From contig CAWFXL010000001.1 in the NCBI GenBank assembly GCA_963819815.1, positions 96,001-160,000 on the forward strand: DNA of 64,000 bases, in the 5' to 3' direction. The translations under genes and the position numbers were made by a program. Source of the DNA: an uncultured bacterium. Its GTDB lineage: Bacteria > Babelota > Babeliae > Babelales > Babelaceae. The notes under the pieces are model-generated. The model saw nothing but the letters and a program-made list of their open reading frames with translations. It ran no database searches and was not told where the DNA came from. Every line of letters starts with the position of its first letter. Position 1 is the first letter of the stretch. This document shows positions 29,674 through 44,138 of the stretch, piece after piece.

Positions 29674-31035
29674 TTAGCCACTATGGCCTACCAGCATTGC
29701 ATTGGCGGCTATGCCTGCACCAATACCAGCTGCCCAACAAAGAGCCTGTTTCAGTTCAAATGACCTTTCTGGATTTGCTTTCTTGACCAGAGTATATGCC
29801 CCTAGGCCAGCTGCGCTATATACGAGCCATGTAGACTTAGGAGTAAAACGATCAGGTTTATTATAATCTCGACCTACTAAAAGTCCTACACAAAGACCTC
29901 CAAGAAAATCACCAGTAGACCCTTTAAGAAATTCAGGAGCTGTCTCTTCTTCAGTGGTTTCATGAAAGTGAGGGACCTTAGAGTTAGAATGACGGCTTGG
30001 AAGACGGTGAGCCCGTTTCATACAGGCGAGCTCTTCTCGTTTGCCCGTATTAATGACCACTACCTGCCAATCTCGTGGATCAAGATGTTTTGGTAGCAGC
30101 TTATTTAGTTGTGCATCCTCTTTGGTGAGATCCTTGATAGGGTACAAGTCTGGTAGCACACGCAGATTGCCTTGCTTTAAACCAAACTTTTTACGGAATT
30201 CATCAGGGGTCATGCCATCGATGGTGTCATCCTCATCATCAGGTATATCAAAAGTTACATTCTTTTTTGGCTTAGAAGCGACTTTTGCAGTGGCTGGCAC
30301 TCTAAGGTCTACCGGAATATGTTCTTGAAGCAGGTCTGCTGCAGAGCGTATTTTTTGAAGACTCGTGGATTCTTTTTTAGTAGGGGCTCTCTGTAAGTAT
30401 TTCAGTATAACCTGATCGTTTCCATCCTTTTGGAGGGGATCTATAATCTTCATCGGTTTTCTACAGGTAGGGCATTGATGCTTGCTTCGGGCTGCTTTTA
30501 GAGCTTCTTCCAGAGACAGGTTATGCCCGCACCCTAACTCAATAATAATATGACCTTTATCTACCTCTTGTTGAGACGCAGAACATTTTCGAAGTACCGT
30601 ATCAGGAGCTGGCTTAGTTGAAGGCGTATGTCTCATTAAATACGCGTGTAGCTTGTTTTGTTCTTGAGCGTTGAGCGGCTTTTGACGATGGTGTACATAC
30701 GCATAGCTATTTTTAGTGATCCGAGGATCATGTACCTTATAGGTGCTACGGCAGGTTGGACATGCCCTATCCATTGGATTCGCACGATCCATTGCGATTA
30801 AACAATCTAAGCAATAATGATGGTTAACTTTTTGCTGGCAATCGAACTGAATAACGATACTGTCAGGTGTATAAGCGGTCATGCAAATGGGACAGCCTGT
30901 TCCCTCATCCTCTTCTTCTACTTCATGAGTATGAGCTCTCGGTCCTGTGGCCCAGAGACTTGGGGTAATACTGCCAAAAAGCACTGCTACACCGAGCAGG
31001 GTAATAAGTAATTTCTTCATAGTAAACTTCCACAT
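29674..31035 (-). CDS. Secreted RING-finger protein (one intact and one degenerate RING) with C-terminal hydrophobic helices
   Basis: CPIC..C..HHYCLDC..CPTCR and LGCGH..CPTCR; signal peptide; start may be MKKLL at 31020. Confidence 0.8.
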   Translation of the reverse strand: MWKFTMKKLLITLLGVAVLFGSITPSLWATGPRAHTHEVEEEDEGTGCPICMTAYTPDSIVIQFDCQQKVNHHYCLDCLIAMDRANPMDRACPTCRSTYKVHDPRITKNSYAYVHHRQKPLNAQEQNKLHAYLMRHTPSTKPAPDTVLRKCSASQQEVDKGHIIIELGCGHNLSLEEALKAARSKHQCPTCRKPMKIIDPLQKDGNDQVILKYLQRAPTKKESTSLQKIRSAADLLQEHIPVDLRVPATAKVASKPKKNVTFDIPDDEDDTIDGMTPDEFRKKFGLKQGNLRVLPDLYPIKDLTKEDAQLNKLLPKHLDPRDWQVVVINTGKREELACMKRAHRLPSRHSNSKVPHFHETTEEETAPEFLKGSTGDFLGGLCVGLLVGRDYNKPDRFTPKSTWLVYSAAGLGAYTLVKKANPERSFELKQALCWAAGIGAGIAANAMLVGHSG

Positions 31036-32837: not shown

Positions 32838-35552
32838 TTATTTAAGGTTGTATTCTTGACAGCGTCTGTTAACCGATGAGCGGTTAACCCCTAAGAGGGT
32901 AGCAATTTTGCTTTGACTTTTGAACTTATGCCAGAGGATAGACATAACATGAGGATCCTTGAGAGCCTTTTTGCCTAGCCGCACTGCATGAGCAATATCT
33001 GGATCTGAAACGTTATAAGCGGGATCAAATTTAGTAACTTCAGAAATATTATGCTTACTCGATTTTTGGACAAGGAGTTGATGTACTCGATCTTTAAAGG
33101 CACGTAAGCTTAATGGCCGTTCATCATAGAGTTTTGAGGTATCTTTATCAGTTAATGAGAGCAAGTTTTTATAGGTATCTTCAGTAACAATTTGATCGGC
33201 AAATCCTTGAGCTAAAGCAGTGACCTCAGGTTCTGAAAGCTCATGCATTGGAGGCATAACCAATGAGGTTTGTTCAAGCTCATCATAGAGCTCCTGACAG
33301 AAGGCGCCTTCATGGACAAGCTGCAGAAGATTTTTGTTGGTTGAACAGATAATGCGAACGTTACTAAATACTTTATGGTCGCTCTTAAATTTATGAAAAT
33401 AACCAAGTGAAATGAACTCTGCTAAATAATTTTGAGTCTCTGTTCCTAAATATTCAACATTCTGGATAAAGAGGGTTCCGATATTATCTAGTTTTTCAAG
33501 CAGGGGCTGAATGCCATCTTTTTTTATGAGCGGATTATGGCCAAAGAGTTTTACAGCAACATCGTCCTGTTTCTCAGGAGAAGTAAGTTTTATGGTATGG
33601 AGTGATTGTCGGAGGCTTATGTTATGGAGTACTTCAACGGTTGGTATAAGATCTTCCTCAGGCAGATCAAGGAGCGTAGCTTTTTTACCTAATGCCGTTG
33701 AAAGCAGGTTAATTTTAAAGGAAAGGAGCTTTTCGCTATTTCCTGGTATAAGTCTGTTTATTAATTGGCCTGATTGTGTCGTTTCTAAATAGAGAACGTA
33801 GTCCCACATGGAAGGATCTTTGAGCTCGTCAAAGTGAGTTTTGATGATATCTGAAACTTCGGGATAATGAATCAAGACAATCGTTGCCCGCTCTTCAAGG
33901 CTTGGGATACCATTTATAATAATTTTTTGTCCTTTTGCGTCATGTGCAAAGGTAGTTTGCGAGGTCTTAAATTCTTGCACACGACGAGCAAGTGTTCGGA
34001 TTGCCTGAGTAAGAGGGTGGCCTTCATTCGCATTTAAATCTATCCCGACAAGCTCTTGAGCGGCCTCATTTGCTAGGGTGAACTTACGATACTTATAAAA
34101 GAGGATACCGACTTTACGCTCTTTATTTGAGCGTAAGAAGGAGCGTATACTTTCCTTATATTGATTAATTTCCTGGTGCTTGTAATACAGCTCTTCGCTA
34201 ATCACTTTATGTCTCTGATGAAGTGCTTCTAAATTACTATATTTGAGAATGTTAATAATATTGCTCACATAGGTGGTAAACACGAGCATTTCATCTCGAT
34301 CTTTATTAGTGTACAGTTTGCCCGGTCGTGCATCACGCTCTACAATGATATAGGCGGAGATACCAGATCTCTCAAAGATTGGGAGGAACACGTCGGCATT
34401 AATTTCGTTGAGGAATTGAAGAATTTCCTGATTTTGAGCATCATCTTCATAAAAGGCGGAAAAATGAATGTCGTCTCGTATAAATATTTTTAGTTTATGT
34501 AATGCCTGGGTAACCACTTCTTGCTTGTCGATATACTGCTCGACCTTTGCTGTTGTCTGCGCAATATCATAGTAGTTGTGATCATCCTGCTCTGAATCTG
34601 CTTTACGAATATAAAGTCTTACACGACCTAGAGGGATGCTAAAAGCAGTCTGAAAAAAACTCTGAGTGAGCTGGGCAAGCTCCTTGAGTGCACTTGCATA
34701 GCTTAGCTGCTCCAAAATATCTTTAAATTGTGTGATGAAGTTAAATTTCTGTTTTGATTCGACGGTCTTTCTGATATTAAGGAACCTCAGGCCTAACATT
34801 TTTTGAATAATGAGATAAATGGCGGCACTACTTAAGAGACTCGTAAGCGAGAGAAGATTAATTCTATGATACCAGGCTGTCGGAATGATCCAGGCGAGTG
34901 TTTGACCGGAGTTATTAAGAAGGTCAAAGCCTATAAAGGGAATAAGGAAACTGGTAAATACACGAATATGTTGCCGTAAAATAGTAGGAAGTTCTCGGTT
35001 ACTATCACGCAGTACCCTATAAAATAGGGGAATGAGAAGGAAAAAGAGCAAGTAAAAATGAATCGCTTGGATAAGGTCCATCTCAAAATTGACTGTTCTT
35101 GGATTGAGCGGAGGAATTCCATAATTAATGAACGCGTGATAGAGATACGTGCAACTGATGGCAATATTAACTAGTATATGAAGGGTAGTCGTGAGGGGAT
35201 GCCAGGTGATTCGTTTGTGGAGCAAAAATTCAAAGAAAAGTGCAATCGTTTGAATTTGCGTTATGTAAATTGACCAACATATACGACAATAAAGAGTGAA
35301 GACAGGAATATCCCCCACAATGTGATTAATACCTCTAATCCAATATTGCAAGATAAAGGTAAGATCATTTGCAAGTAATCCACCAAGGAAAAACAAAAGA
35401 CAGACCAAGAGCATTCGGCGGCTTTTTGCTGAGAAATAGTAGAATATACAGCCAAAGAAGATGATCGCTTTAAAAAGCCATGCACCAATCATAATGCCAA
35501 GCGTGACATACTGATTACTCAATAGTGTATAGATGGAACTCAGATATTGCAT
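32838..35552 (-). CDS. Membrane-anchored one-component regulator: ~7TM + GAF + PAS + degenerate sigma54-activator AAA+ + Fis-type HTH (receptor 1)
   Basis: ~7 hydrophobic segments in aa 1-255; GAF-like VFLPI..AYIIVE...LYT..D; PAS-like ANEAA.ELVG; GTLFI..VRIICSTNKNL..V.EG.F; QSKIA.LLGVNRSSV.RR. Confidence 0.85.
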   Translation of the reverse strand: MQYLSSIYTLLSNQYVTLGIMIGAWLFKAIIFFGCIFYYFSAKSRRMLLVCLLFFLGGLLANDLTFILQYWIRGINHIVGDIPVFTLYCRICWSIYITQIQTIALFFEFLLHKRITWHPLTTTLHILVNIAISCTYLYHAFINYGIPPLNPRTVNFEMDLIQAIHFYLLFFLLIPLFYRVLRDSNRELPTILRQHIRVFTSFLIPFIGFDLLNNSGQTLAWIIPTAWYHRINLLSLTSLLSSAAIYLIIQKMLGLRFLNIRKTVESKQKFNFITQFKDILEQLSYASALKELAQLTQSFFQTAFSIPLGRVRLYIRKADSEQDDHNYYDIAQTTAKVEQYIDKQEVVTQALHKLKIFIRDDIHFSAFYEDDAQNQEILQFLNEINADVFLPIFERSGISAYIIVERDARPGKLYTNKDRDEMLVFTTYVSNIINILKYSNLEALHQRHKVISEELYYKHQEINQYKESIRSFLRSNKERKVGILFYKYRKFTLANEAAQELVGIDLNANEGHPLTQAIRTLARRVQEFKTSQTTFAHDAKGQKIIINGIPSLEERATIVLIHYPEVSDIIKTHFDELKDPSMWDYVLYLETTQSGQLINRLIPGNSEKLLSFKINLLSTALGKKATLLDLPEEDLIPTVEVLHNISLRQSLHTIKLTSPEKQDDVAVKLFGHNPLIKKDGIQPLLEKLDNIGTLFIQNVEYLGTETQNYLAEFISLGYFHKFKSDHKVFSNVRIICSTNKNLLQLVHEGAFCQELYDELEQTSLVMPPMHELSEPEVTALAQGFADQIVTEDTYKNLLSLTDKDTSKLYDERPLSLRAFKDRVHQLLVQKSSKHNISEVTKFDPAYNVSDPDIAHAVRLGKKALKDPHVMSILWHKFKSQSKIATLLGVNRSSVNRRCQEYNLK

Positions 35553-35568
35553 AGTTCTAAACTTTTTG

Positions 35569-35596
35569 TTGACTTTTGAAAAAACTGTTATAGAAT
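35569..35596 (+). promoter_or_regulatory. sigma70 promoter, peptide unit 1
   Basis: TTGACT-N16-TAGAAT, conserved in all three units. Confidence 0.75.
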
Positions 35597-35730
35597 CACT
35601 TTACAGAAAATCTAATCAAAAAGAGTTTAACTCCGTAGCAGCTAATGTCAAATTGTGCGCAATGGTTGCTACTTGAAGCTAAGGAATTGTAGCTGGTGGT
35701 TTTTTAATATATTTTCAAAAAGGAGTAACG

Positions 35731-35853
35731 ATGGCTAAACTAATTGTTAGCGCATTGTTCGCTATACTAATGACTGGTGCAGTAGCTGAAGTTTCTGCAC
35801 AGACTCGGTCCGAGGTTGCTAAAACTTATGCAATCTGCCCGTTTCCGTTCTAA
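35731..35853 (+). CDS. Small secreted peptide precursor 1 (40 aa) MAKLIVSALFAILMTGAVAEVSAQTRSEVAKTYAICPFPF
   Basis: Manually translated; AGGAG 5 nt before ATG; Sec-like signal ending VSA|Q; two paralogs downstream; followed by terminator. Confidence 0.9.
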   Translation: MAKLIVSALFAILMTGAVAEVSAQTRSEVAKTYAICPFPF

Positions 35854-35858
35854 AGTAT

Positions 35859-35910
35859 TAACTATAAAGAAAGCACCCCTCGAATTCGAGGGGTGCTTTC
35901 TTTATAGTTA
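35859..35910. terminator. Perfect 52-bp palindrome after peptide gene 1
   Basis: TAACTATAAAGAAAGCACCCCTCGAA|TTCGAGGGGTGCTTTCTTTATAGTTA. Confidence 0.85.
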
Positions 35911-36000
35911 GGTCTTGCAGCTACTATTGAGGGGAATGTACCCCAAATCTACGTTTTAAAAGTTTATTGTTCTCCCTAAGAATTTCTTATTTATTTTTGG

Positions 36001-36028
36001 TTGACTTTTGAAGAAACCGTTATACAAT
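36001..36028 (+). promoter_or_regulatory. sigma70 promoter, peptide unit 2
   Basis: TTGACT-N16-TACAAT. Confidence 0.75.
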
Positions 36029-36161
36029 AATTTAGAAGAACTGCACGTAACATAAAAATAATATAACTTCGAGCAGCAGCGTATAGTAATTACTTGGCGG
36101 CTGTTTAGGTTCTGAGAATTGTAGTGGGTTGGTTTTTATTATTATTCAAATAGGAGTGATG

Positions 36162-36284
36162 ATGACAAAGCTTATTTTTAGTGCTTTGCTTGCTATGGTA
36201 ATGATTGGTTCAGTAGCAGAACTTTCTGCACAGACTCGGTCAGAAGCTGCCAAAACTTATGCAGTCTGCCCATTTCCGTTCTAA
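36162..36284 (+). CDS. Small secreted peptide precursor 2 (40 aa) MTKLIFSALLAMVMIGSVAELSAQTRSEAAKTYAVCPFPF
   Basis: Manually translated; AGGAG RBS; frame-preserving, mostly conservative or synonymous differences from copy 1. Confidence 0.9.
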   Translation: MTKLIFSALLAMVMIGSVAELSAQTRSEAAKTYAVCPFPF

Positions 36285-36299
36285 CTTATTCTAACTTTA

Positions 36300-36340
36300 A
36301 AATTAAGAACCCCCTCGAATCTCGAGGGGGTTCTTAATTT
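36300..36340. terminator. 19-bp-arm hairpin after peptide gene 2
   Basis: AAATTAAGAACCCCCTCGA-ATC-TCGAGGGGGTTCTTAATTT. Confidence 0.85.
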
Positions 36341-36430
36341 ATGGCTAAGGTATCCGAGGCTATCACTGAGGGGAAAGTGCCCCAATCTATATTTTTATAT
36401 TAGACCCAAGACGTTCCTGTTCACTTTTGG

Positions 36431-36458
36431 TTGACTTTCGAGAGAACTGTTATAGAAT
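36431..36458 (+). promoter_or_regulatory. sigma70 promoter, peptide unit 3
   Basis: TTGACT-N16-TAGAAT. Confidence 0.75.
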
Positions 36459-36571
36459 CCTCTATAAGAACTGTACAAAAAAATAATATACCTGCGGGTA
36501 GCAGCTTATAGTAGGCGGCTATATGAGTTTTGAATTGTAGTGGTTGTTTTATATATCCAATAGGAGTGACG

Positions 36572-36697
36572 ATGACAAAGCTGATTCTTAGCGTATTTCT
36601 CGCTATATTAATGACAGGAGCAGTAGTTGAAGTATCTGCGCAAGCAAAGCGTTCAACGGTTTCTACAACTTGCCCCGAAGCGCGGTTTCCGTTCTAA
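36572..36697 (+). CDS. Small secreted peptide precursor 3 (41 aa) MTKLILSVFLAILMTGAVVEVSAQAKRSTVSTTCPEARFPF
   Basis: Manually translated; AGGAG RBS; same signal peptide, divergent mature part, conserved Cys-Pro and FPF end. Confidence 0.9.
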   Translation: MTKLILSVFLAILMTGAVVEVSAQAKRSTVSTTCPEARFPF

Positions 36698-36707
36698 GCT
36701 AAAGTTA

Positions 36708-36746
36708 CAAGAAAGAGCCCCTCGAATTTCGAGGGGCTCTTTCTTG
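36708..36746. terminator. 19-bp-arm hairpin, bidirectional between peptide 3 and receptor 2
   Basis: CAAGAAAGAGCCCCTCGAA-T-TTCGAGGGGCTCTTTCTTG. Confidence 0.85.
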
Positions 36747-36759
36747 GTGCTAACAGTTT

Positions 36760-39552
36760 TCAAGTTGGTGGCTGGTTGCTTCCCAAATTAAGCTCTCTGC
36801 ATCTACGGTTCACCGAAGATCTATTCACCCCAAGAAGATGAGCAATTTTGCTTTGATTTTTGAAGGTGTACCAAAGCTGAGCCATTATGTGTGGATCGCG
36901 GAGTGCTTTTTTACCCAGTCTTACAGCTTGAGCAATGACCGGATCGGTACTACTATTAACCGGATCGATTTTTTCAATGTCTGTGATGTTGTGTGATCGG
37001 GACTTTTCAAGAAGCAGCTCTTGAATTCGCTCTTTAAGTTCTTGCAAGCTGAGAGGACATTCCTTGATAAGCTGTGAGGTTTCCTTTGGTGTGATACTCA
37101 AGAGGTCTTTAAACGTATCAGTAGTGATTAGTTGATCAGCATATCCTTGTGCAAGCAAGGTTATATCTTCATGAGCAAGGTCAGTTAATGAAGGGAGACT
37201 AATGGTAGTTGCTTGTAGCTGCTCAAAGAGCTCTTGAGAAAAGACTCCTTCACTTACTAATACTGAAAGATCTTTTGACGTTGAACAGATGATGCGGGCA
37301 GAGCTCATTATTTTTTGGTCGCTTTTCACTTTATAAAAGTATCCCATGCGGATGTACTGGGCCAAGCCCTCTTGTGAGGTGAGACTTAACAGTTCTAGAT
37401 TTTGAATAAAGAGGGTGCCTGATTCATCGAGCTTGCTAAGCAGACTTTCAGATTGACTACCGCCCAGGAGGTCATTGATCCCAAAGAGCTGTGTGGCGAT
37501 TTCATCATGCTGCTCGCGTCGGGTAAGCTTGAGGGTGTACAAGTTTCTCCTTAGGCTTATCGAATGGAGTGATGTTACCGCTGCAAGCAGATCTTCCTCA
37601 GGCAACGAAAGAAGGACAGCTTTTCTGGTTAATGCAGCAGAAAGGAGTCCGATTTTAAAGGACAAAAGTGCCTCAGAGGTGCCAGGAATAAGTTCATTAA
37701 TAAGCCGCCCCGATTGGGTCGTTTCTAAATAGAGAACATAGTCCCAACAGGAGGGATCTTTCAGATACCCAGCATGGGGTTTTAACAGATCTGAAATTTC
37801 TGGATAGTAGAGTAGGAGTATACTTGAGGTCGTATCTGCATTTGGAATACCTGAGATCACCAGCTTAGTGCCACGTGTATCCTTACCATAGGCTATCTGT
37901 GCGGTTTTATATTGTTCAACCCTTTGTGCTACGGTCGTGCATATCTTGGTGAGTGGATGTCCCGAGAGCTTATTTAGATCAAAGCCCACGAGGTCATGAG
38001 CGGCCTCATTGGCATATGAAAACGTGCGATTTTTATAGGAGATGATACCGATTTTTCGCTCATGAGAGGTGCGCATGAATGAGCGTATGAGCTCCTTGTA
38101 CTGATTAATTTCTTGATGCTTATGATAAAGTTCTTCAGTAAGCTGTTTCTTTTGTACATGTAAAGCCTCCATACTAGTCTGTTGAAGTGCGGAAATGACA
38201 TTACTTATATACGAGGTAAATACGAGCATTTCATCCCGTTCTTTATTTGTGTAGAGCTTATCAGGTCGTGCATCGCGTTCTACCATAATATAGGCAACAA
38301 TCTTTGATTGTTCGTAAATCGGTACAAAGAGATCAGCATGGAGCATATCAAGGAAAGCAAGAATTTTTCTGTTGAGATCTGAAGCCTCATAGAAAAAAGA
38401 AAATTCTACGGCTTCCCGAATAAATATTTTATCGCGGGCTAAAGCAGCACGTAACGGTTCGTCATCCTTCAGAAATTGTTCAATTTTTAGCGCTGCTCCT
38501 ATGGCTTCTGGCGAAGTGACTGGGGCATCTTTAATGAAGAGTCGGGTAAAACTGAGTCGTATACCGAAGGCTGTGTGGAAAAAGGTTTGGGTGATATGAC
38601 ACAGTTCATTGACTGCTGAGGCATACCTCACCTGCTCCAAGATGTCTTTAAAATTAGTAAGAAAGTTAAAAGGTACCTTTGAGGTGACATCTGAATGTAA
38701 ATTAAGCAATCTCAAGCCGAGCATTTTTTTACTCAAAGTTATCAGGAGAAAGGCGCTGCAGAGGGCACCAATAGTGGCCCAGGAGTATTGACCTAAGGGG
38801 AAAGGAATATGTGCCGCACTAAAAATGGTGTACCATCCATCACCAAACAGAAGCAAGGAAAAAGGAAAGAGGTATAGGAGGCATGACTGTACCTGGACAG
38901 CCAAAATTTTAGGAAGTGTTCTGGTGCGCAGTTTTCGTATAAGGAATATAAAAAGGCCCAAATACAAGATAAATACATAACAATAGCTCGCAGAAATTAC
39001 GTTATGCTCAAGGAGATATTCGCTGCTCGATGTAACTACCGGAATTCCATAATAGGCTCCAGCTTCATATAAGAAAAAACTGGTGAACAGGAGATTGCAT
39101 AGAAGGTTTAAACTATGAAGGAAGGTGCACTTAATTCTTTGGGTTAAGAGGTATTCAAAAAAGAGGGCTAATGCCTGATGTGCACTGATAAAAAGACTCA
39201 GAGAAATTCGGCAATAGAGAGTAAAAAGGGGGATATCGCCCTGTATTTCAAGAATCCTTCGTAAAACGATCGATCCAATATAGGTAGCATCATCAAGGAG
39301 CGTTCCGAAAAGAAATATGAGTAATAGAAAAAGAGGTGCCCTGAGCTGTGGTTTATTATACCAAAACTTCACAATAAACCGGCCAATAACGAGCTTGGCA
39401 AGGCTCACAAGGATGAGCGCGCCACACGTTATATACGGATTAACAAGAAAAGAGGTGAGTGCTTCCAATAAGTGGTTCATCCCTAATATCTCTAGTTCCC
39501 TCTCATGAGGGTGTATATACATGAGTACTGCTTGTACTATTAATTTAAACAA
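36760..39552 (-). CDS. Paralogous membrane-anchored 7TM-GAF-PAS-degenerate AAA+-Fis HTH regulator (receptor 2)
   Basis: Shares long near-identical blocks with 32838-35552 (VERDARP.KLYTNK.RDEMLVFT, WDYVLYLETTQSG, LLGVNRSSVNRRC); start may be ATG at 39480. Confidence 0.85.
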   Translation of the reverse strand: MFKLIVQAVLMYIHPHERELEILGMNHLLEALTSFLVNPYITCGALILVSLAKLVIGRFIVKFWYNKPQLRAPLFLLLIFLFGTLLDDATYIGSIVLRRILEIQGDIPLFTLYCRISLSLFISAHQALALFFEYLLTQRIKCTFLHSLNLLCNLLFTSFFLYEAGAYYGIPVVTSSSEYLLEHNVISASYCYVFILYLGLFIFLIRKLRTRTLPKILAVQVQSCLLYLFPFSLLLFGDGWYTIFSAAHIPFPLGQYSWATIGALCSAFLLITLSKKMLGLRLLNLHSDVTSKVPFNFLTNFKDILEQVRYASAVNELCHITQTFFHTAFGIRLSFTRLFIKDAPVTSPEAIGAALKIEQFLKDDEPLRAALARDKIFIREAVEFSFFYEASDLNRKILAFLDMLHADLFVPIYEQSKIVAYIMVERDARPDKLYTNKERDEMLVFTSYISNVISALQQTSMEALHVQKKQLTEELYHKHQEINQYKELIRSFMRTSHERKIGIISYKNRTFSYANEAAHDLVGFDLNKLSGHPLTKICTTVAQRVEQYKTAQIAYGKDTRGTKLVISGIPNADTTSSILLLYYPEISDLLKPHAGYLKDPSCWDYVLYLETTQSGRLINELIPGTSEALLSFKIGLLSAALTRKAVLLSLPEEDLLAAVTSLHSISLRRNLYTLKLTRREQHDEIATQLFGINDLLGGSQSESLLSKLDESGTLFIQNLELLSLTSQEGLAQYIRMGYFYKVKSDQKIMSSARIICSTSKDLSVLVSEGVFSQELFEQLQATTISLPSLTDLAHEDITLLAQGYADQLITTDTFKDLLSITPKETSQLIKECPLSLQELKERIQELLLEKSRSHNITDIEKIDPVNSSTDPVIAQAVRLGKKALRDPHIMAQLWYTFKNQSKIAHLLGVNRSSVNRRCRELNLGSNQPPT

Positions 39553-39643: not shown

Positions 39644-40306
39644 ATGCAGCTTCAGGAAAAAATAGTACGCATTATACAGCTTTTAAAAGAGGCAACAAAA
39701 GATATGCCTCCGACCTTAACGACGTCCCTCATAAAAGACTATGGGCGGGACCCGTTTATTATCCTTATTTCGTGTCTTTTGAGCCTCCGTGCAAAAGATA
39801 CAGCCACCTATCCGGTGAGTAAAAAGCTCTTTGAGCGAGTGCGTACGCCTGAGGAGCTGCTTAAGATGCCTGTTAAAGAGCTCGAGGAACTTCTTTATCC
39901 GCTTGGGTTTTATCGTAAGAAGACCGAAACTGTCCGATCGGTTTGCCAAGAGCTTATTAGGAGGTTTAAGGGAAATGTACCGCATACCGAGGAGGAGCTC
40001 CTCTCCTTAAAGGGAGTTGGGCGGAAAACAGCCCAGCTCGTACTTGGTAGTGCCTTCAAAATACCCACTATTTGCGTTGATACCCATGTACATAGGATTG
40101 CCAATAGGCTTGGCTGGATCCAGACGACCCATCCTGATGAAACGGAAAGGGAATTAAAACGGCTCATTCCACAAGAATATTGGCTGGATATTAATACCTA
40201 TCTCGTTATGTGGGGCCAGAATATCTGTGTACCCATCTCACCCAAATGTTCCCAATGTGTTTTGAGTCCCTTATGCCCTAAAATTGGCGTAGGGAAAAGA
40301 AGGTAA
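39644..40306 (+). CDS. nth: Endonuclease III
   Basis: HhH L.GVGRKTA, VDTHVHR, C-x6-C-x2-C-x5-C FeS motif. Confidence 0.95.
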   Translation: MQLQEKIVRIIQLLKEATKDMPPTLTTSLIKDYGRDPFIILISCLLSLRAKDTATYPVSKKLFERVRTPEELLKMPVKELEELLYPLGFYRKKTETVRSVCQELIRRFKGNVPHTEEELLSLKGVGRKTAQLVLGSAFKIPTICVDTHVHRIANRLGWIQTTHPDETERELKRLIPQEYWLDINTYLVMWGQNICVPISPKCSQCVLSPLCPKIGVGKRR

Positions 40307-40561: not shown

Positions 40562-40909
40562 ATGAAACTATACGTAGGAAACCTTTCCCGCTCTACAACG
40601 GATGATACGGTTCGACAAGCATTTGAACAATTTGGCGAAGTATCGTCAGTTCGAATTCTCTTCGATCGTGAAACCCGCCAATCTCGTGGTTTCGGCTTTG
40701 TCGAAATGCCACAAGATGAGCAAGCGAAAGAAGCTATGGATAAGCTTAATGAAACTGAAATTGAAGGTCGTCGCATTCGTGTAAACGAAGCGCGCGAACC
40801 AGAACGCACCGGCGGAAGCAGTGGTGGTGGCCGTTCGGGTGGTGGTTTCCGCGGTGATCGCGGCGGTGACCGTGGTCCACGTGATGGCGGTTTTAGAAAT
40901 CGTTTCTAA
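40562..40909 (+). CDS. RRM RNA-binding protein with Gly/Arg-rich tail
   Basis: KLYVGNL (RNP2), RGFGFVEM (RNP1), RVNEAR, RGG tail. Confidence 0.93.
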   Translation: MKLYVGNLSRSTTDDTVRQAFEQFGEVSSVRILFDRETRQSRGFGFVEMPQDEQAKEAMDKLNETEIEGRRIRVNEAREPERTGGSSGGGRSGGGFRGDRGGDRGPRDGGFRNRF

Positions 40910-41101: not shown

Positions 41102-42199
41102 ATGCAGTGGAACTGGCAGCTGGCTACATGGCCGAATTTTACCTATAACCCTGATAGCATAACTGAGCTTGAAAGAACATTTCTTTTAAGAGCAGGCAGC
41201 AGCTATGCTTTGTTATGCACTACAGGTGAGAAGGATAGAACTCAATTTATAATTGAGATGCTCACTCAAGAAGGATTAGAAAGTTCAAAAATTGAGGGAG
41301 AGCTTCTCGACCGGGAAAGTTTAGTATCATCAATTAAAAAGCACTTTGGGTTGCATGATGATAGTAAGAATCAATCTAATAAAGAGGCGGGGATGGCTGA
41401 GCTTCTCTGTAACGTATATGAGACCTACGATGCACCGCTTAGCCACGAAATGCTTTGGCAATGGCATGGGATGCTCTTTAAAAAAAATTGGTCCAGTCTT
41501 GAAGAATGCGGACAGTATCGGACACATAAAGAGCCGATGCAGATTGTTTCTGGTCATGGTGATGGACGCATCTACTTCGAAGCGCCCCCTTCAAAGAATG
41601 TATACAAAGAAATGACGAGATTTATCGAATGGTATAATGCTTCAGGCACTTCAGAGACTCTTTTAGGACGAGCTGCTCTTGCACATGTGTACTTTGAAAG
41701 TATTCATCCCTTTGAAGATGGAAATGGAAGGATAGGCAGAGTTCTTGTGGAAAAAGTTCTCTCCCAAGGAGCTCAACAACCTCTTTTGATTGCAGTTTCA
41801 AAGTGCATTGAAAAACGCAAAAAGGCCTATTATACAGAACTTGAAAGATGTAATAGGACGGTTGAGGTACAGCACGGGGTTGAGTTTTTTGCCCACATAA
41901 TCCTGCAAGCTCAGCAAGATTCGATGAGGCTTCTCAACTTTTTGATGCAGAAGTCTAAAATGCTTACGGCGCTATCAGGAAAAATCAATCAACGACAAGA
42001 AAAGGTTTTGTTGAGGATGTTTGCAGAAGGGCCCGATGGCTTTCAGGGAGGTTTAAGTGCTGAAAAATATATCTCTATTACAAAAACACCTCGTGCTACG
42101 GCTACTCGCGATTTAGTTGACCTGGTTAGTAGGGGAGCCTTGCTAAAAACTGGTGAATTGCGGTATACCCGCTACTGGCTAAATCTGGCCTATGTATGA
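41102..42199 (+). CDS. Fic family protein (DUF4172 N-terminus, C-terminal wHTH)
   Basis: MQWNWQ...WP.F; HPFEDGNGRIGR; ATATRDL.DLV. Confidence 0.93.
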   Translation: MQWNWQLATWPNFTYNPDSITELERTFLLRAGSSYALLCTTGEKDRTQFIIEMLTQEGLESSKIEGELLDRESLVSSIKKHFGLHDDSKNQSNKEAGMAELLCNVYETYDAPLSHEMLWQWHGMLFKKNWSSLEECGQYRTHKEPMQIVSGHGDGRIYFEAPPSKNVYKEMTRFIEWYNASGTSETLLGRAALAHVYFESIHPFEDGNGRIGRVLVEKVLSQGAQQPLLIAVSKCIEKRKKAYYTELERCNRTVEVQHGVEFFAHIILQAQQDSMRLLNFLMQKSKMLTALSGKINQRQEKVLLRMFAEGPDGFQGGLSAEKYISITKTPRATATRDLVDLVSRGALLKTGELRYTRYWLNLAYV

Positions 42200-42242: not shown

Positions 42243-44138
42243 TTAATGATCTTCGATTGAAATGGCGCCTTGCATGAGTCTTTGATAGTAGGGTGATTTC
42301 TTTTCAAGAACTGCTCGTGGATAGAAGACAATATCTTTTTCTTTGTCGATCAATGAAAAGTCGAGGATACCCACAGCTTCCTCAATAGTTTTTAAGCGAT
42401 GTGCAATAACGATAGTAAGCGCACTTTGCGCAAGCTCGCTAATCATCTTAGTGATAGCCATTTCACTGACTTCATCAAGACTACTTGTAGGTTCGTCAAT
42501 AAGAATAAGAGCCGGGTTATAATACTTTGCGCGCATATAGAGACTGGCAAAGTTTAAGCGTTGTCGTTGCCCACCTGAGAGGGTAAGTCCTGCTTCACCA
42601 ATGGGGGTTTCAAGTCCCTGCTTTTTCTTAAAGACATCCCAGATTCCTACCTGGGTAAGTATTTCTACGATCTCTTCATGAGTGTAGATAACCTTGTCAT
42701 GAGGTAGTCCTAAGAGCAAGTTTCGGTAGACCGTTCCACTCAAGCTACTTGCAATCTGACCTTGCATACAAATAAGGCTTCGCCGTATTTCGTCATTTAC
42801 GTTATAGACGGGTACTCCATTAACAAGAACATGACCTTTATCAGGTTTTAATTGACCGCCAAGGAGAGAGAGAAAAGTTGTTTTACCTATTCCCGAGGGC
42901 CCGATAATACCATAGAGTTTCTTCGGCTGACTGCGCGGAACCTCTATGAAAAAGGTATGATCATCAAAGATTTTTGCTTGAGGATTATAGTAAAAATGAA
43001 TGTCCTTAGCAGATACCGTAATTATATCCGTTTTTGCAGGTATAACAGGCATAGCCTCTGGAGCTGCAAGTACCGGATAGGTTTGTTTGCCAAACATTTG
43101 GATAAATAGGTAAAGATCATCTATGCGTGTGGTTGCTCGAAGAACTTTTCTAATACGCCTTCCAATCTCTATCACTTCATATGTTCCGTTAATGTAGGTA
43201 TAGAGAACAGCCACCCCTTGCATGACCGTTAATGAGCCATCCTTGATTAATGAGAACACTAACCAGCCAAGTATAAAAATGCTTCCTAAATAAAAAAGTC
43301 GTGAAATGGTCACCGATGCTGCAAAAGCGAGCCATGCCGTTCCTTCGATATCCATGAGATCTTTTGCCTTTTGTTTAGTGAGATCTGCAATTTCATGGGT
43401 AGCAAATGAGGAACGTATAAGCTGTACTTGTGTCAGACTTTCTACAGCAACTGCTTTTAATGAGTCATCCGCATCGATCATATTATTCTCAAAGGAAGCG
43501 CTGGTAAATAAGTTAAGGATTATATTAATGACCGCGATGAACGCTAACAAAATTAAGCAGGTTAATCCAAGCGTACGATCAAGAAAGAAAAAGGTGATGG
43601 TAACACTGAGCACACTTATAATAACCGGTAAGATATCCCATAACATCATATCGATGAAATTTTCATAGGCACGAGCACATCGTTCTACTTTGACAAAGAG
43701 TTTTCCGGTGGATTTTAGGGTATGGTAAAGTGGATCAACCGTAAGGAAATGTTCAATGGCATTGTACAGTATACTGTTCACGCACTGTACTTCTAAAAAT
43801 GCAGCAAAATAAACTGACACGAACTCAAGAACTATAATAAAAAGCCAGAATGCGATCAGATACAGAAAGAGCGTAAAGCTTTCAAGGTGGATGATTTTTT
43901 CAAGCAGCATCGGATAAATTGCATAGAAGCACTGGATCAGTGCAATGCAAAGAACCGAAATAGTGAGAGGCACTTTTTTTTTGCCAATAACACGCAGCCA
44001 GTGCTCACTAAAATCGATGGGAAAGACGCTAGCTTTTTTTCCAAAGTTAGCTAACCTTAGCCAAAAATGATAATAGCTCTCTACTAAATGTTTATACTGA
44101 TTAAACATGGTATTCTCAATAACTGTCACGGTATCCAA
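42243..44138 (-). CDS. Fused ABC exporter (TMD + NBD)
   Basis: ~6 TM, GPSGIGKTT, LSGGQRQR, IDEPTSSLD, IAHRL. Confidence 0.9.
   Translation of the reverse strand: MDTVTVIENTMFNQYKHLVESYYHFWLRLANFGKKASVFPIDFSEHWLRVIGKKKVPLTISVLCIALIQCFYAIYPMLLEKIIHLESFTLFLYLIAFWLFIIVLEFVSVYFAAFLEVQCVNSILYNAIEHFLTVDPLYHTLKSTGKLFVKVERCARAYENFIDMMLWDILPVIISVLSVTITFFFLDRTLGLTCLILLAFIAVINIILNLFTSASFENNMIDADDSLKAVAVESLTQVQLIRSSFATHEIADLTKQKAKDLMDIEGTAWLAFAASVTISRLFYLGSIFILGWLVFSLIKDGSLTVMQGVAVLYTYINGTYEVIEIGRRIRKVLRATTRIDDLYLFIQMFGKQTYPVLAAPEAMPVIPAKTDIITVSAKDIHFYYNPQAKIFDDHTFFIEVPRSQPKKLYGIIGPSGIGKTTFLSLLGGQLKPDKGHVLVNGVPVYNVNDEIRRSLICMQGQIASSLSGTVYRNLLLGLPHDKVIYTHEEIVEILTQVGIWDVFKKKQGLETPIGEAGLTLSGGQRQRLNFASLYMRAKYYNPALILIDEPTSSLDEVSEMAITKMISELAQSALTIVIAHRLKTIEEAVGILDFSLIDKEKDIVFYPRAVLEKKSPYYQRLMQGAISIEDH

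Follow-up and report, generated by a model that had tools for sequence, protein, structure and literature searches.

The stretch of DNA considered here (64,000 nucleotides, nt, of contig CAWFXL010000001.1 in assembly GCA_963819815.1, positions 96,001 to 160,000; hereafter the window) comes from a Dependentiae (TM6) bacterium whose genome, G000, spans 1.64 Mb and is 88% complete. It contains a locus in which two genes for large membrane regulators, both on the minus strand, bracket three small open reading frames (sORFs) on the plus strand, and this association of a regulator with divergent micropeptide genes is a real cassette, conserved in the phylum. The first regulator gene (receptor 1, 904 amino acids, aa) occupies 32838..35552 and the second (receptor 2) 36760..39552; the latter can be read as 930 aa from a TTG codon and, because the alignment with its paralog (49% identity) begins at residue 29, more likely starts at the ATG at 39480 (906 aa). 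The 1207-nt gap between the two genes (35552 to 36760) holds sORF 1 (40 aa, 35731-35853), sORF 2 (40 aa, 36162-36284) and sORF 3 (41 aa, 36572-36697). An extra ATG at 36159 precedes sORF 2 and is missing from the sister genome, G001, which favours the start at 36162.

Dependentiae are obligate parasites of protists, with genomes of 1-2 Mb and very few regulators. The database proteins closest to the two receptors carry the names Candidatus Dependentiae, Babeliales and Babela massiliensis, and the matches include receptors 68-87% identical to those of the window. A Babela homolog of the family is among them; the Babela genome paper counts 5 predicted transcription regulators in this organism and says nothing further on these.

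The sORFs belong to three units of ~400 nt that align with one another at 80% mean column identity, each with its own promoter-like site, ribosome-binding site and hairpin, as an earlier note on this DNA, made from the sequence alone, had described together with the two paralogous flanking proteins of ~900 aa. The sigma-70-type promoter-like sites (35569-35596, 36001-36028 and 36431-36458, plus strand, 10 of 12 consensus positions matched in each) read TTGACT-16-TA(G/C)AAT, lie at an equivalent position in every unit and are conserved among the units and in the sister genome; in all, 5 promoter-like sites fall within the region, compared with 3.1 +/- 2.1 in shuffled sequences. A ribosome-binding site, AGGAGT, stands 6-7 nt 5' of each sORF ATG. 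A few bases past each stop codon follows a terminator-like hairpin with a perfect stem of 18-25 bp, at 35858..35911 (-42.4 kcal/mol, z -11.9), 36300-36340 (-30.7 kcal/mol, z -7.3) and 36708-36746 (-37.6 kcal/mol, z -8.2), all on the plus strand, and none of 200 shuffles folds as well. One stem shows a compensatory pair change relative to the sister genome, and a simple terminator scan picked up only one of the three hairpins.

All three peptides share one layout, with a Met-(Ala/Thr)-Lys n-region, a 15-residue hydrophobic stretch (the h-region, L4 to V18), a V/L/I21-S22-A23|Q24 site and a polar tail, and by eye they have the features of a Sec-type signal peptide (basic n-region, h-region of ~10-15 residues, small residues at -1 and -3). 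The tail is 17 aa long and ends in CPFPF in sORF 1, has the same end in sORF 2, and is a different 18-aa sequence ending in ARFPF in sORF 3. Across the six peptides of G000 and G001, E20, S22, A23, Q24 and the F-P-F end are invariant. The Cys that the earlier note took as a defining residue is Ala in G001 peptide 1 and thus not essential. Signal peptidase I is encoded in the genome, with an intact copy on contig 2; a second signal peptidase I-like frame (G000:C1:973980-974435) is interrupted by one in-frame TAG.

Three other identities for the peptides were tried and set aside: a lipoprotein, as no lipobox Cys follows the h-region; a host mimic of EVH1-ligand type (FPPPP), which fits few relatives only; and a DegS-type YxF C-terminal mimic, which fits this species only. 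A profile built from the three peptides matches only themselves among the 22,843 sORFs of the 1.64-Mb genome, and a profile search of 5.8 billion proteins returned 4 FPF-peptide proteins only, all from the window or the sister genome; a scan of metagenomes turned up 4 loci, none of which added a peptide-bearing upstream region.

Conserved pairing of regulator and micropeptide gene

At the level of gene arrangement, the pairing extends well beyond these two genomes. A partner was defined as an ATG-initiated ORF of 18-110 aa on the strand opposite the receptor, with a mean Kyte-Doolittle hydrophobicity of at least 2.0 over 11 residues within its first 28 residues. Such a divergent hydrophobic sORF lies at most 900 nt upstream in 44 of 48 full-length receptors of a first set (42 of 48 when intergenic space only is counted), and two of the misses hold sub-threshold candidates with a Pro-Pro (PP) tail; among all G000 genes, taken as a control, the figure is 162/1125 (14%), or 156/697 for genes with at least 200 nt upstream. 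Since the pattern had been defined on the first loci, an out-of-sample set was taken, consisting of the best receptor match from each of 40 further genomes, picked before their DNA was seen: 36 of the 40 have the sORF, 76-290 nt from the estimated receptor start, and 33 have PP, while the four misses carry candidates below the threshold or with a non-ATG start, PP being present in two of them. Homologs devoid of adjacent small exported ORFs, which the earlier note had named as the outcome that would count against its proposal, were thus the exception in both sets.

A PP after residue 12 occurs in 38 of 71 receptor-adjacent sORFs (54%) and in 13 of 403 background sORFs (3%), with a core of the form x-P-P-(Y/W/P/T/S/G...) and a median of 5.5 residues after it in the 38 contexts. 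Two forms of the partner can be told apart. In the window's genus it has 40-51 aa, with a signal-peptide-like h-region, a V/I/L-S-A|Q-type site and a tail of 17-25 aa. Outside the genus it is typically a peptide of 18-38 aa, in which 11-20 hydrophobic residues follow a short N-terminus and the sequence closes with x-P-P-x(1-4); when the -1/-3 rule is applied by eye, a signal-peptidase site is plausible in some of these, immediately ahead of an acidic residue and PP, and many have none. In most lineages, the partner looks like a membrane-tethered partner at least as much as a diffusible pheromone. The ORF, its ribosome-binding site, the hydrophobic start and the C-terminal motif are kept across receptors as little as 25-40% identical and, as the peptide sequences themselves are highly diverged, it is the kept arrangement that is informative.

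Distribution and duplication of the cassette

The receptor family is present in 49 of 61 relatives, in all 10 genomes of the genus and, across the phylum, in 82 of 101 sampled, often in several copies, and is missing from four families (0/6, 0/4, 0/2 and 0/1 genomes). It was seen in Dependentiae records only, bar one match labelled Candidatus Limnocylindria. Tandem receptor pairs occur in many genomes, and about nine copies are present in G019.

In single-copy genomes, the sORF sits between the receptor and a co-directional nth (endonuclease III) gene that begins 10-140 nt downstream, and at many loci an ORF of ~205-237 aa lies downstream of the sORF. In the window, nth is found at 39644..40306 (plus strand; TIGR01083, E 6.7e-57), next to receptor 2, which is the nth-proximal paralog with 92-163 nt up to nth and no sORF in between; in the genus, it is the other paralog, away from nth, that has 1-3 sORFs. 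The same holds for receptor copies elsewhere that lie away from nth and have one or more divergent sORFs of their own (four in G011, three in G031, two in G015 and the second copy of G002), and each of the six G019 copies examined (L038-L043) has its own sORF, of a type with a signal-like start, a Gly-rich spacer, a Cys and a D..EF(S/L)xx end without PP. In the receptor tree, paralogs group by genome, and sister receptors carry like peptides, such as the DYPP tails of two G011 copies or the C...D..EF tails of G019. The sORFs at copies away from nth, the clustering of paralogs by genome and the tandem arrays of 2-3 sORFs, which arose several times (window, G009, G002, G006, G011 and G022), link the sORF to the receptor and not to nth, which is context and lies outside the module; the clustering also indicates that cassettes were duplicated as units. 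Broken receptors, remnants of N- and C-terminal fusions and exact sORF duplicates in G002 (L063), G004 (matches with TGA stops) and G005 (L060) show the cassette region to be recombinationally active within the genus.

The position of nth bears on a cis-acting reading, in which the sORFs would be ribosome-arrest or proline-stalling leader peptides whose N-terminal signal and C-terminal PP control a downstream gene. A peptide of 18-35 aa is still inside the ribosomal exit tunnel when its PP is decoded, so that pulling by Sec could not act on it. The gross anatomy resembles that of RAPP-type arrest peptides (PMC7897499, PMC10951233 and PMC12992588), which have an N-terminal signal or transmembrane segment and a C-terminal PP, and the short distance to nth in single-copy genomes would suit such control. 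In the window, however, a strong hairpin follows each sORF and the gene beyond is convergent, none being co-directional; the neighbour is nth rather than a Sec or YidC gene, and the downstream gene varies in multi-copy genomes. The window peptides end in FPF, and R-[AG]-P-P occurs in none of the 38 PP contexts of the relatives. Taken together, this makes arrest peptides highly unlikely.

Leaders and sequence evolution of the sORF units

Between promoter-like site and sORF, unit 1 has a leader of ~127 nt (35604..35730, plus strand) that contains a conserved small hairpin together with the word TTGTAG(C)TGG; leader length across units is about 110-130 nt. The hairpin (GUAGCAGC...GyyGCUAC) lies at 35640-35680, 36075-36115 and 36505-36530 and is kept in the sister genome, with one compensatory pair and a weak consensus energy of -10.1 kcal/mol. 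The word (TTGTAG(C)TGG/GTAGTGG) lies at 35687-35696, 36119-36127 and 36535-36543, 35-50 nt 5' of the sORF ATG. GTAGTGG-type words are confined to the genus, occurring at 15 of all 71 receptor-adjacent sORFs (loci L004-L011 and L051), and are retained even in the 70-nt spacers of three tandem G009 sORFs; an RNA processing site and an operator are both possibilities. As a mark of a regulon, GTAGTGG was dropped, with ~50 copies per strand in the genome. The extended word is found in the three sORF leaders and at a few unrelated intergenic sites, one of them 5' of an ORF that looks transposase-like when its N-terminal translation is read by eye.

On the opposite strand, a promoter-like site assigned to receptor 1 by consensus match only (TTGACA-16-TAAACT, 35624..35651, minus strand, 10 of 12) stands back to back with that of sORF 1, and the transcripts predicted from these two consensus matches would overlap by ~14 nt, so that receptor 1 and sORF 1 could be expressed in a mutually exclusive manner. 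Another minus-strand promoter-like site (36168-36141) overlaps the start of sORF 2, in one of the three units. A search of 35000-37300 against Rfam gave 39 matches at E up to 10, most of them on the terminator hairpins and none near a gathering score. Among sequencing runs compared with the 1.2-kb stretch, one soil DNA run has a small share of its words, and no RNA run is listed.

Several of these features would also be expected of type I toxin-like hydrophobic peptides controlled by an antisense RNA and functionally unrelated to the regulators: the products are small with a hydrophobic start, the genes form tandem copies with their own promoters, terminators and leaders of ~127 nt, and the site over the start of sORF 2 could drive an antisense transcript. 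Type I toxin loci are patchily distributed, whereas here pairing with the receptor is conserved phylum-wide, as are, in their respective lineages, the PP tail and the A|Q site; moreover, the antisense site is present in one unit of three and no Rfam family reaches its gathering score. We regard a toxin as very improbable.

Comparison with the sister genome allows the coding character of the sORFs to be judged. The receptor is 98% identical between G000 and G001, and 84 of its 105 substitutions fall at third codon positions; the peptides differ at 2, 7 and 5 residues, and substitutions in the sORFs are distributed as 11, 3 and 12 over codon positions 1, 2 and 3. That third positions are not favoured in the sORFs, and that leaders and promoters are better conserved than the ORF bodies, is what would be seen if these were chance ORFs in a repeated non-coding element whose function resides in the RNA, for example in the leader hairpin or the GTAGTGG word. 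Against this stand the indels, with 0 indel columns in 372 nt of sORF and 28 in 902 nt of non-coding sequence, the enrichment of PP over background, and the retention of reading frame, ribosome-binding site, hydrophobic start and C-terminal motif next to strongly diverged receptors, which leave chance ORFs the most improbable of the readings considered.

Architecture of the regulator proteins

An AlphaFold model of receptor 1, based on 49 homologs (pLDDT 83.7 over the whole protein), consists of a seven-transmembrane (7TM) domain (residues 1-254), an alpha/beta region (272-438), a coiled coil (441-476), a PAS-like domain (482-562), a complete AAA+ fold (~580-790) and a four-helix Fis-type helix-turn-helix (HTH) domain (851-900). 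The earlier note had proposed 7TM, GAF, PAS, sigma54-activator-like AAA+ and Fis HTH domains. The 7TM and AAA+ parts are borne out by AlphaFold, Foldseek and Pfam taken together; the HTH is suggested by a weak, sub-threshold HTH_8 match in receptor 2 (E 0.17), by alignment to the end of TyrR and by the four modelled helices; for PAS, residues 482-562 of the model show the strand and helix order of the fold, while Pfam gives no match. The GAF assignment was not confirmed: Pfam gives no match here either, and the modelled 272-438 region has three strands only. A profile of residues 268-572 (49 sequences) searched against the PDB gave a best E of 0.008, to an unrelated enzyme.

Pfam captures just the second half of the sigma-54-activator AAA+ domain (Sigma54_activat, E 4.8e-10 in receptor 1, residues 690-763 on profile positions 93-166 of 168; E 5.7e-10 in receptor 2). 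Foldseek matches at E ~1e-8 include PspF, NtrC1, NtrX, LuxO, FleQ, DmpR and VpsR; PspF 1-265 aligns over 241 columns, with E 1.4e-8 and a TM-score of 0.69 relative to the target. The fold is that of an activator, and the motifs by which activators work are lost. No Walker A string (GxxxxGK[ST]) is found past residue 500 in any of 49 family members; GTLFLDEI, the Walker B of NtrC1, aligns to GTLFIQNV, the DE column being [Q/E/K]-N, with N in 40 of 49; a GAFTGA-like loop (G[AS][FYW]TGA) occurs in 0 of 49; and the arginines of 'LYYRL' and 'PPLRER' are replaced in the aligned family columns. The sigma-54 DNA-binding-domain family (Sigma54_DBD, PF04552), the only sigma-54 family searched for and one whose control was positive in 4-6 of 14 reference genomes, was found neither in the 88% complete G000 nor in any of 61 genomes, of which 46 are at least 90% complete. 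TyrR (NF008085) is the best match in NCBIfam, with 69.7 bits against a cut-off of 576, E 1.9e-19, over residues 656-903. Because the catalytic and sigma-54-contact motifs are lost and sigma-54 was not found, the AAA+ module is, on the evidence of sequence, that of a TyrR-like, sigma-54-independent regulator and not of a sigma-54 activator; of the label given in the earlier note, the AAA+ fold remains and the sigma-54 function does not.

The 7TM domain of receptor 1 (34791..35552, minus strand, from the AlphaFold model), modelled alone, reaches a pLDDT of 88.5 and a pTM of 0.85 and has no Pfam match. Lys and Arg cluster in loops 1-2, 3-4 and 5-6 and after TM7, a pattern that places the N-terminus in the periplasm and the C-terminus in the cytoplasm. 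When compared with 48,161 representative chains by VIA-align, the top 50 of 50 matches are G-protein-coupled receptors (GPCRs), with Z 13.9-15.3 over 224-252 residues, 5-11% identity and root-mean-square deviations of 3.9-5.3 A, on a scale where, for helical bundles, a Z under ~13 may mean a common arrangement only. Foldseek finds nothing at E <= 0.001 (best 1.6e-3). The model is read as a GPCR-like packing of seven helices, without a claim of homology. HisKA_7TM (PF16927) came up as an ESM Atlas feature lead of 0.90, the family being assigned to 59% of cluster members, and is unlisted by Pfam at E up to 1.

The two receptors of the window share 33% of residues in the transmembrane part (residues 1-270) and 56% in the cytoplasmic rest. 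This agrees with the earlier note in that they differ most in the transmembrane part; its "near-identical" cytoplasmic blocks shrink to that 56%. Between G000 and G001, 10 of 16 receptor residue changes fall in the 7TM domain, which makes up 28% of the length (binomial p 0.004), and six of the ten map to predicted periplasmic loops or their margins. By these sequence comparisons, the transmembrane domain is the fastest-evolving part of the receptor.

Ligand, partner or target?

What could a peptide of this kind do next to such a regulator? The recurring pairing of peptide and receptor probably represents an undescribed signalling module. Our preferred reading, held with slightly more confidence than doubt, is that of a Dependentiae-specific cassette in which a membrane-bound one-component regulator is encoded with cognate exported micropeptides that serve as its ligand or partner. 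The sORF product would be directed to the inner membrane by its hydrophobic N-terminus. In the window's genus, signal peptidase I would cut after V-S-A and free a 17-18 aa peptide with a Gln start and an FPF end into the periplasm, and perhaps beyond; in this genus, the peptide probably does undergo cleavage and is then free in the periplasm. In most other Dependentiae, the partner would stay a tiny hydrophobic peptide whose x-P-P-x tail lies at the periplasmic face. On its periplasmic side, the 7TM bundle would then read the peptide tail, and a signal passing through the coiled coil and the PAS-like domain would alter how the dead AAA+/HTH module oligomerises or binds DNA. The module would in turn act on sigma-70 promoters without ATP hydrolysis and without sigma-54.

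Several observations weigh against peptide reading by the receptor. The pairing counts of the two sets (44/48 and 36/40) come from related genomes that are not independent; they measure conservation, not probability, and statistical support is overstated. Many of the micropeptides have no credible signal-peptidase site, so that a released ligand is not general, and the PP core is PFPF or RFPF in the window species, with other motifs in G019 and G031. Receptor 2 lacks a PP sORF of its own, as do the nth-proximal receptors of G003, G005 and G006. The near-consensus promoters suggest that the peptides are constitutive or repressed rather than activator-dependent; as no activator would be needed at such sigma-70 sites, a simple autoinduction loop is weakened. 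Covariation of receptor and peptide, a check proposed in the earlier note, gave no specific signal in a Mantel test on 42 receptor-peptide pairs (partial r 0.076 for loops given cytoplasm, permutation p 0.11), and Spearman coefficients of peptide similarity against identity are 0.19 for loops, 0.22 for the transmembrane core and 0.25 for the cytoplasmic part, loop and peptide alignments being poor at these distances. A complex prediction for the 7TM domain with a 40-aa precursor scored 0.02 against a mark of 0.32, in a run without controls, and speaks neither way.

Part of this evidence would fit a simpler relation, in which the receptor senses another cue from the host or the envelope and the sORFs are its main targets, encoding peptides with an envelope, host-directed or antimicrobial role that the receptor does not read. 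A divergent layout is typical of a regulator and its target, a regulator and target-promoter unit would co-duplicate as well, and both the missing covariation and the receptors without their own sORF agree with it. The promoters, however, look activator-independent; the peptide tails and the transmembrane domain are both fast-evolving while the cytoplasmic part is conserved; and, with 1-4 residues after PP, the tails hardly offer scope for a function of their own. Pure output is unlikely.

Within cognate reading, the sub-case advanced by the earlier note is a diffusible signal of quorum or confinement, in which cleaved peptides would exit the cell, build up in the host compartment and report density, peptides 1 and 2 on one side and peptide 3 on the other serving separate receptors. 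The canonical signal-peptide layout of the genus, with its invariant V/I/L-S-A|Q site and tails of 17-25 aa, the three gene copies on strong promoters, and the presence of two peptide types and two receptors all speak for it. A 17-aa peptide has no evident route across the outer membrane, however, no dedicated exporter is conserved beside the locus, and elsewhere in the phylum the partner is a hydrophobic micropeptide of 18-38 aa, so that we think it improbable that the signal works in this way.

A wider form of the preferred, cognate reading is put forward tentatively and is itself doubtful. It would make the module a third peptide-signalling architecture beside the Agr/Com kinases and the RRNPP receptors, in which a micropeptide, tethered in most lineages and released in the window's genus, is read periplasmically by a GPCR-like 7TM bundle fused to an ATPase-dead enhancer-binding protein and HTH, and in which duplicated cassettes, up to about nine per genome, serve as private channels by which the infection cycle within the host cell is timed. 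Given ligand sensing, a categorically new signalling architecture is possible.

Relation to known systems

The module draws on known kinds of components, namely peptide-receptor cassettes, membrane one-component regulators and atypical enhancer-binding proteins. With TyrR, NtrX and VpsR it shares an AAA+ fold of the bacterial enhancer-binding protein type followed by a C-terminal Fis-type HTH, GAFTGA being absent here from all 49 sequences; unlike these, it has lost Walker A, the acidic pair of Walker B and the aligned Arg, and it begins with a 7TM domain where they have a soluble ACT (TyrR) or receiver domain.

The Agr and Com systems likewise encode a multi-helix membrane sensor (AgrC, ComD) beside genes for precursor peptides, with lineage-specific diversification of sensor and peptide. 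Here, in contrast, one polypeptide contains both the sensor and the DNA-binding regulator, and the precursor begins with a Sec-type signal, where those systems use a leader cut by a dedicated protease. Scans of 25 ORFs between 20.3 and 52.9 kb against Pfam and other families gave no kinase, response regulator, AgrB or TPR family, with no HisKA, HATPase or Response_reg match, in agreement with the earlier note, and family scans of the neighbouring ORFs revealed no ComAB-type processing exporter at the locus.

RRNPP systems (Rap/NprR/PlcR/PrgX with Phr/NprX/PapR) have the same one-component logic, and their cassettes also expand by duplication; their precursor is small, Sec-exported and encoded next to the receptor, and its C-terminal few residues are active. 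The receptor there is a cytoplasmic TPR protein that needs re-import of the peptide, whereas here it is a 7TM protein of a diderm host, with no Pfam TPR family in either receptor at E up to 1. In ToxR/ToxS, CadC and TcpP/TcpH, a DNA-binding domain and a membrane anchor are also joined in one polypeptide, and ToxR and TcpP work with a small membrane partner. Those proteins have an N-terminal OmpR-type winged helix, a single transmembrane helix and a periplasmic sensor domain, unlike the seven N-terminal helices and the C-terminal Fis-type HTH, ~630 residues from the membrane, of the present family.

For the peptide itself, the closest anatomical parallels are MgrB and SafA acting on PhoQ, peptides of 20-50 aa that have a single hydrophobic helix, extend a short tail into the periplasm and act on a membrane sensor. 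This anatomy fits the 18-38 aa partner of most Dependentiae. MgrB and SafA target histidine kinases and their genes are not known to lie beside that of their sensor, whereas adjacency is the rule here and the window peptides have a signal-peptidase-type site. Among the literature matches listed, there is no description of the family or of the pairing, and none joins Dependentiae and sigma-54.

The retention of the regulator family in most genomes of the phylum (82/101), often in several copies, makes it likely that the receptor and its partner micropeptide gene are central to the timing of the Dependentiae life cycle. This partner gene is missed by standard gene lists, and the case illustrates how sORFs of 18-40 aa can be recovered through conserved pairing with a larger gene. 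If the peptide is a ligand or co-receptor, the module would represent a new coupling of an exported peptide to transcription, through a 7TM domain, a dead AAA+ and an HTH; the label "sigma-54-interacting regulator" would be functionally misleading where sigma-54 is not found, and the cultured members Babela, Vermiphilus and Chromulinavorax would offer a testable handle. Should the third-architecture reading be true, the module would be one of the very few transcription regulators kept by these reduced parasites.

Neighbouring genes

Downstream of receptor 2 and just past nth, the plus strand encodes a 115-aa RRM-type RNA-binding protein with an Arg/Gly-rich tail (40562-40909), followed by a Fic/DUF4172 protein (41102-42199). 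An ABC exporter with membrane and ATPase domains, in which a peptidase domain was not detected, lies on the minus strand at 42243-44138, 2.7 kb from receptor 2. On the other side of the locus, a 453-aa protein (29674-31035, minus strand) combines a signal-peptide-like start, a zf-RING_2 domain (E 4.2e-9) and a hydrophobic C-terminus, and in this resembles ubiquitin ligases of eukaryotic type, as one would expect of a parasite of protists.

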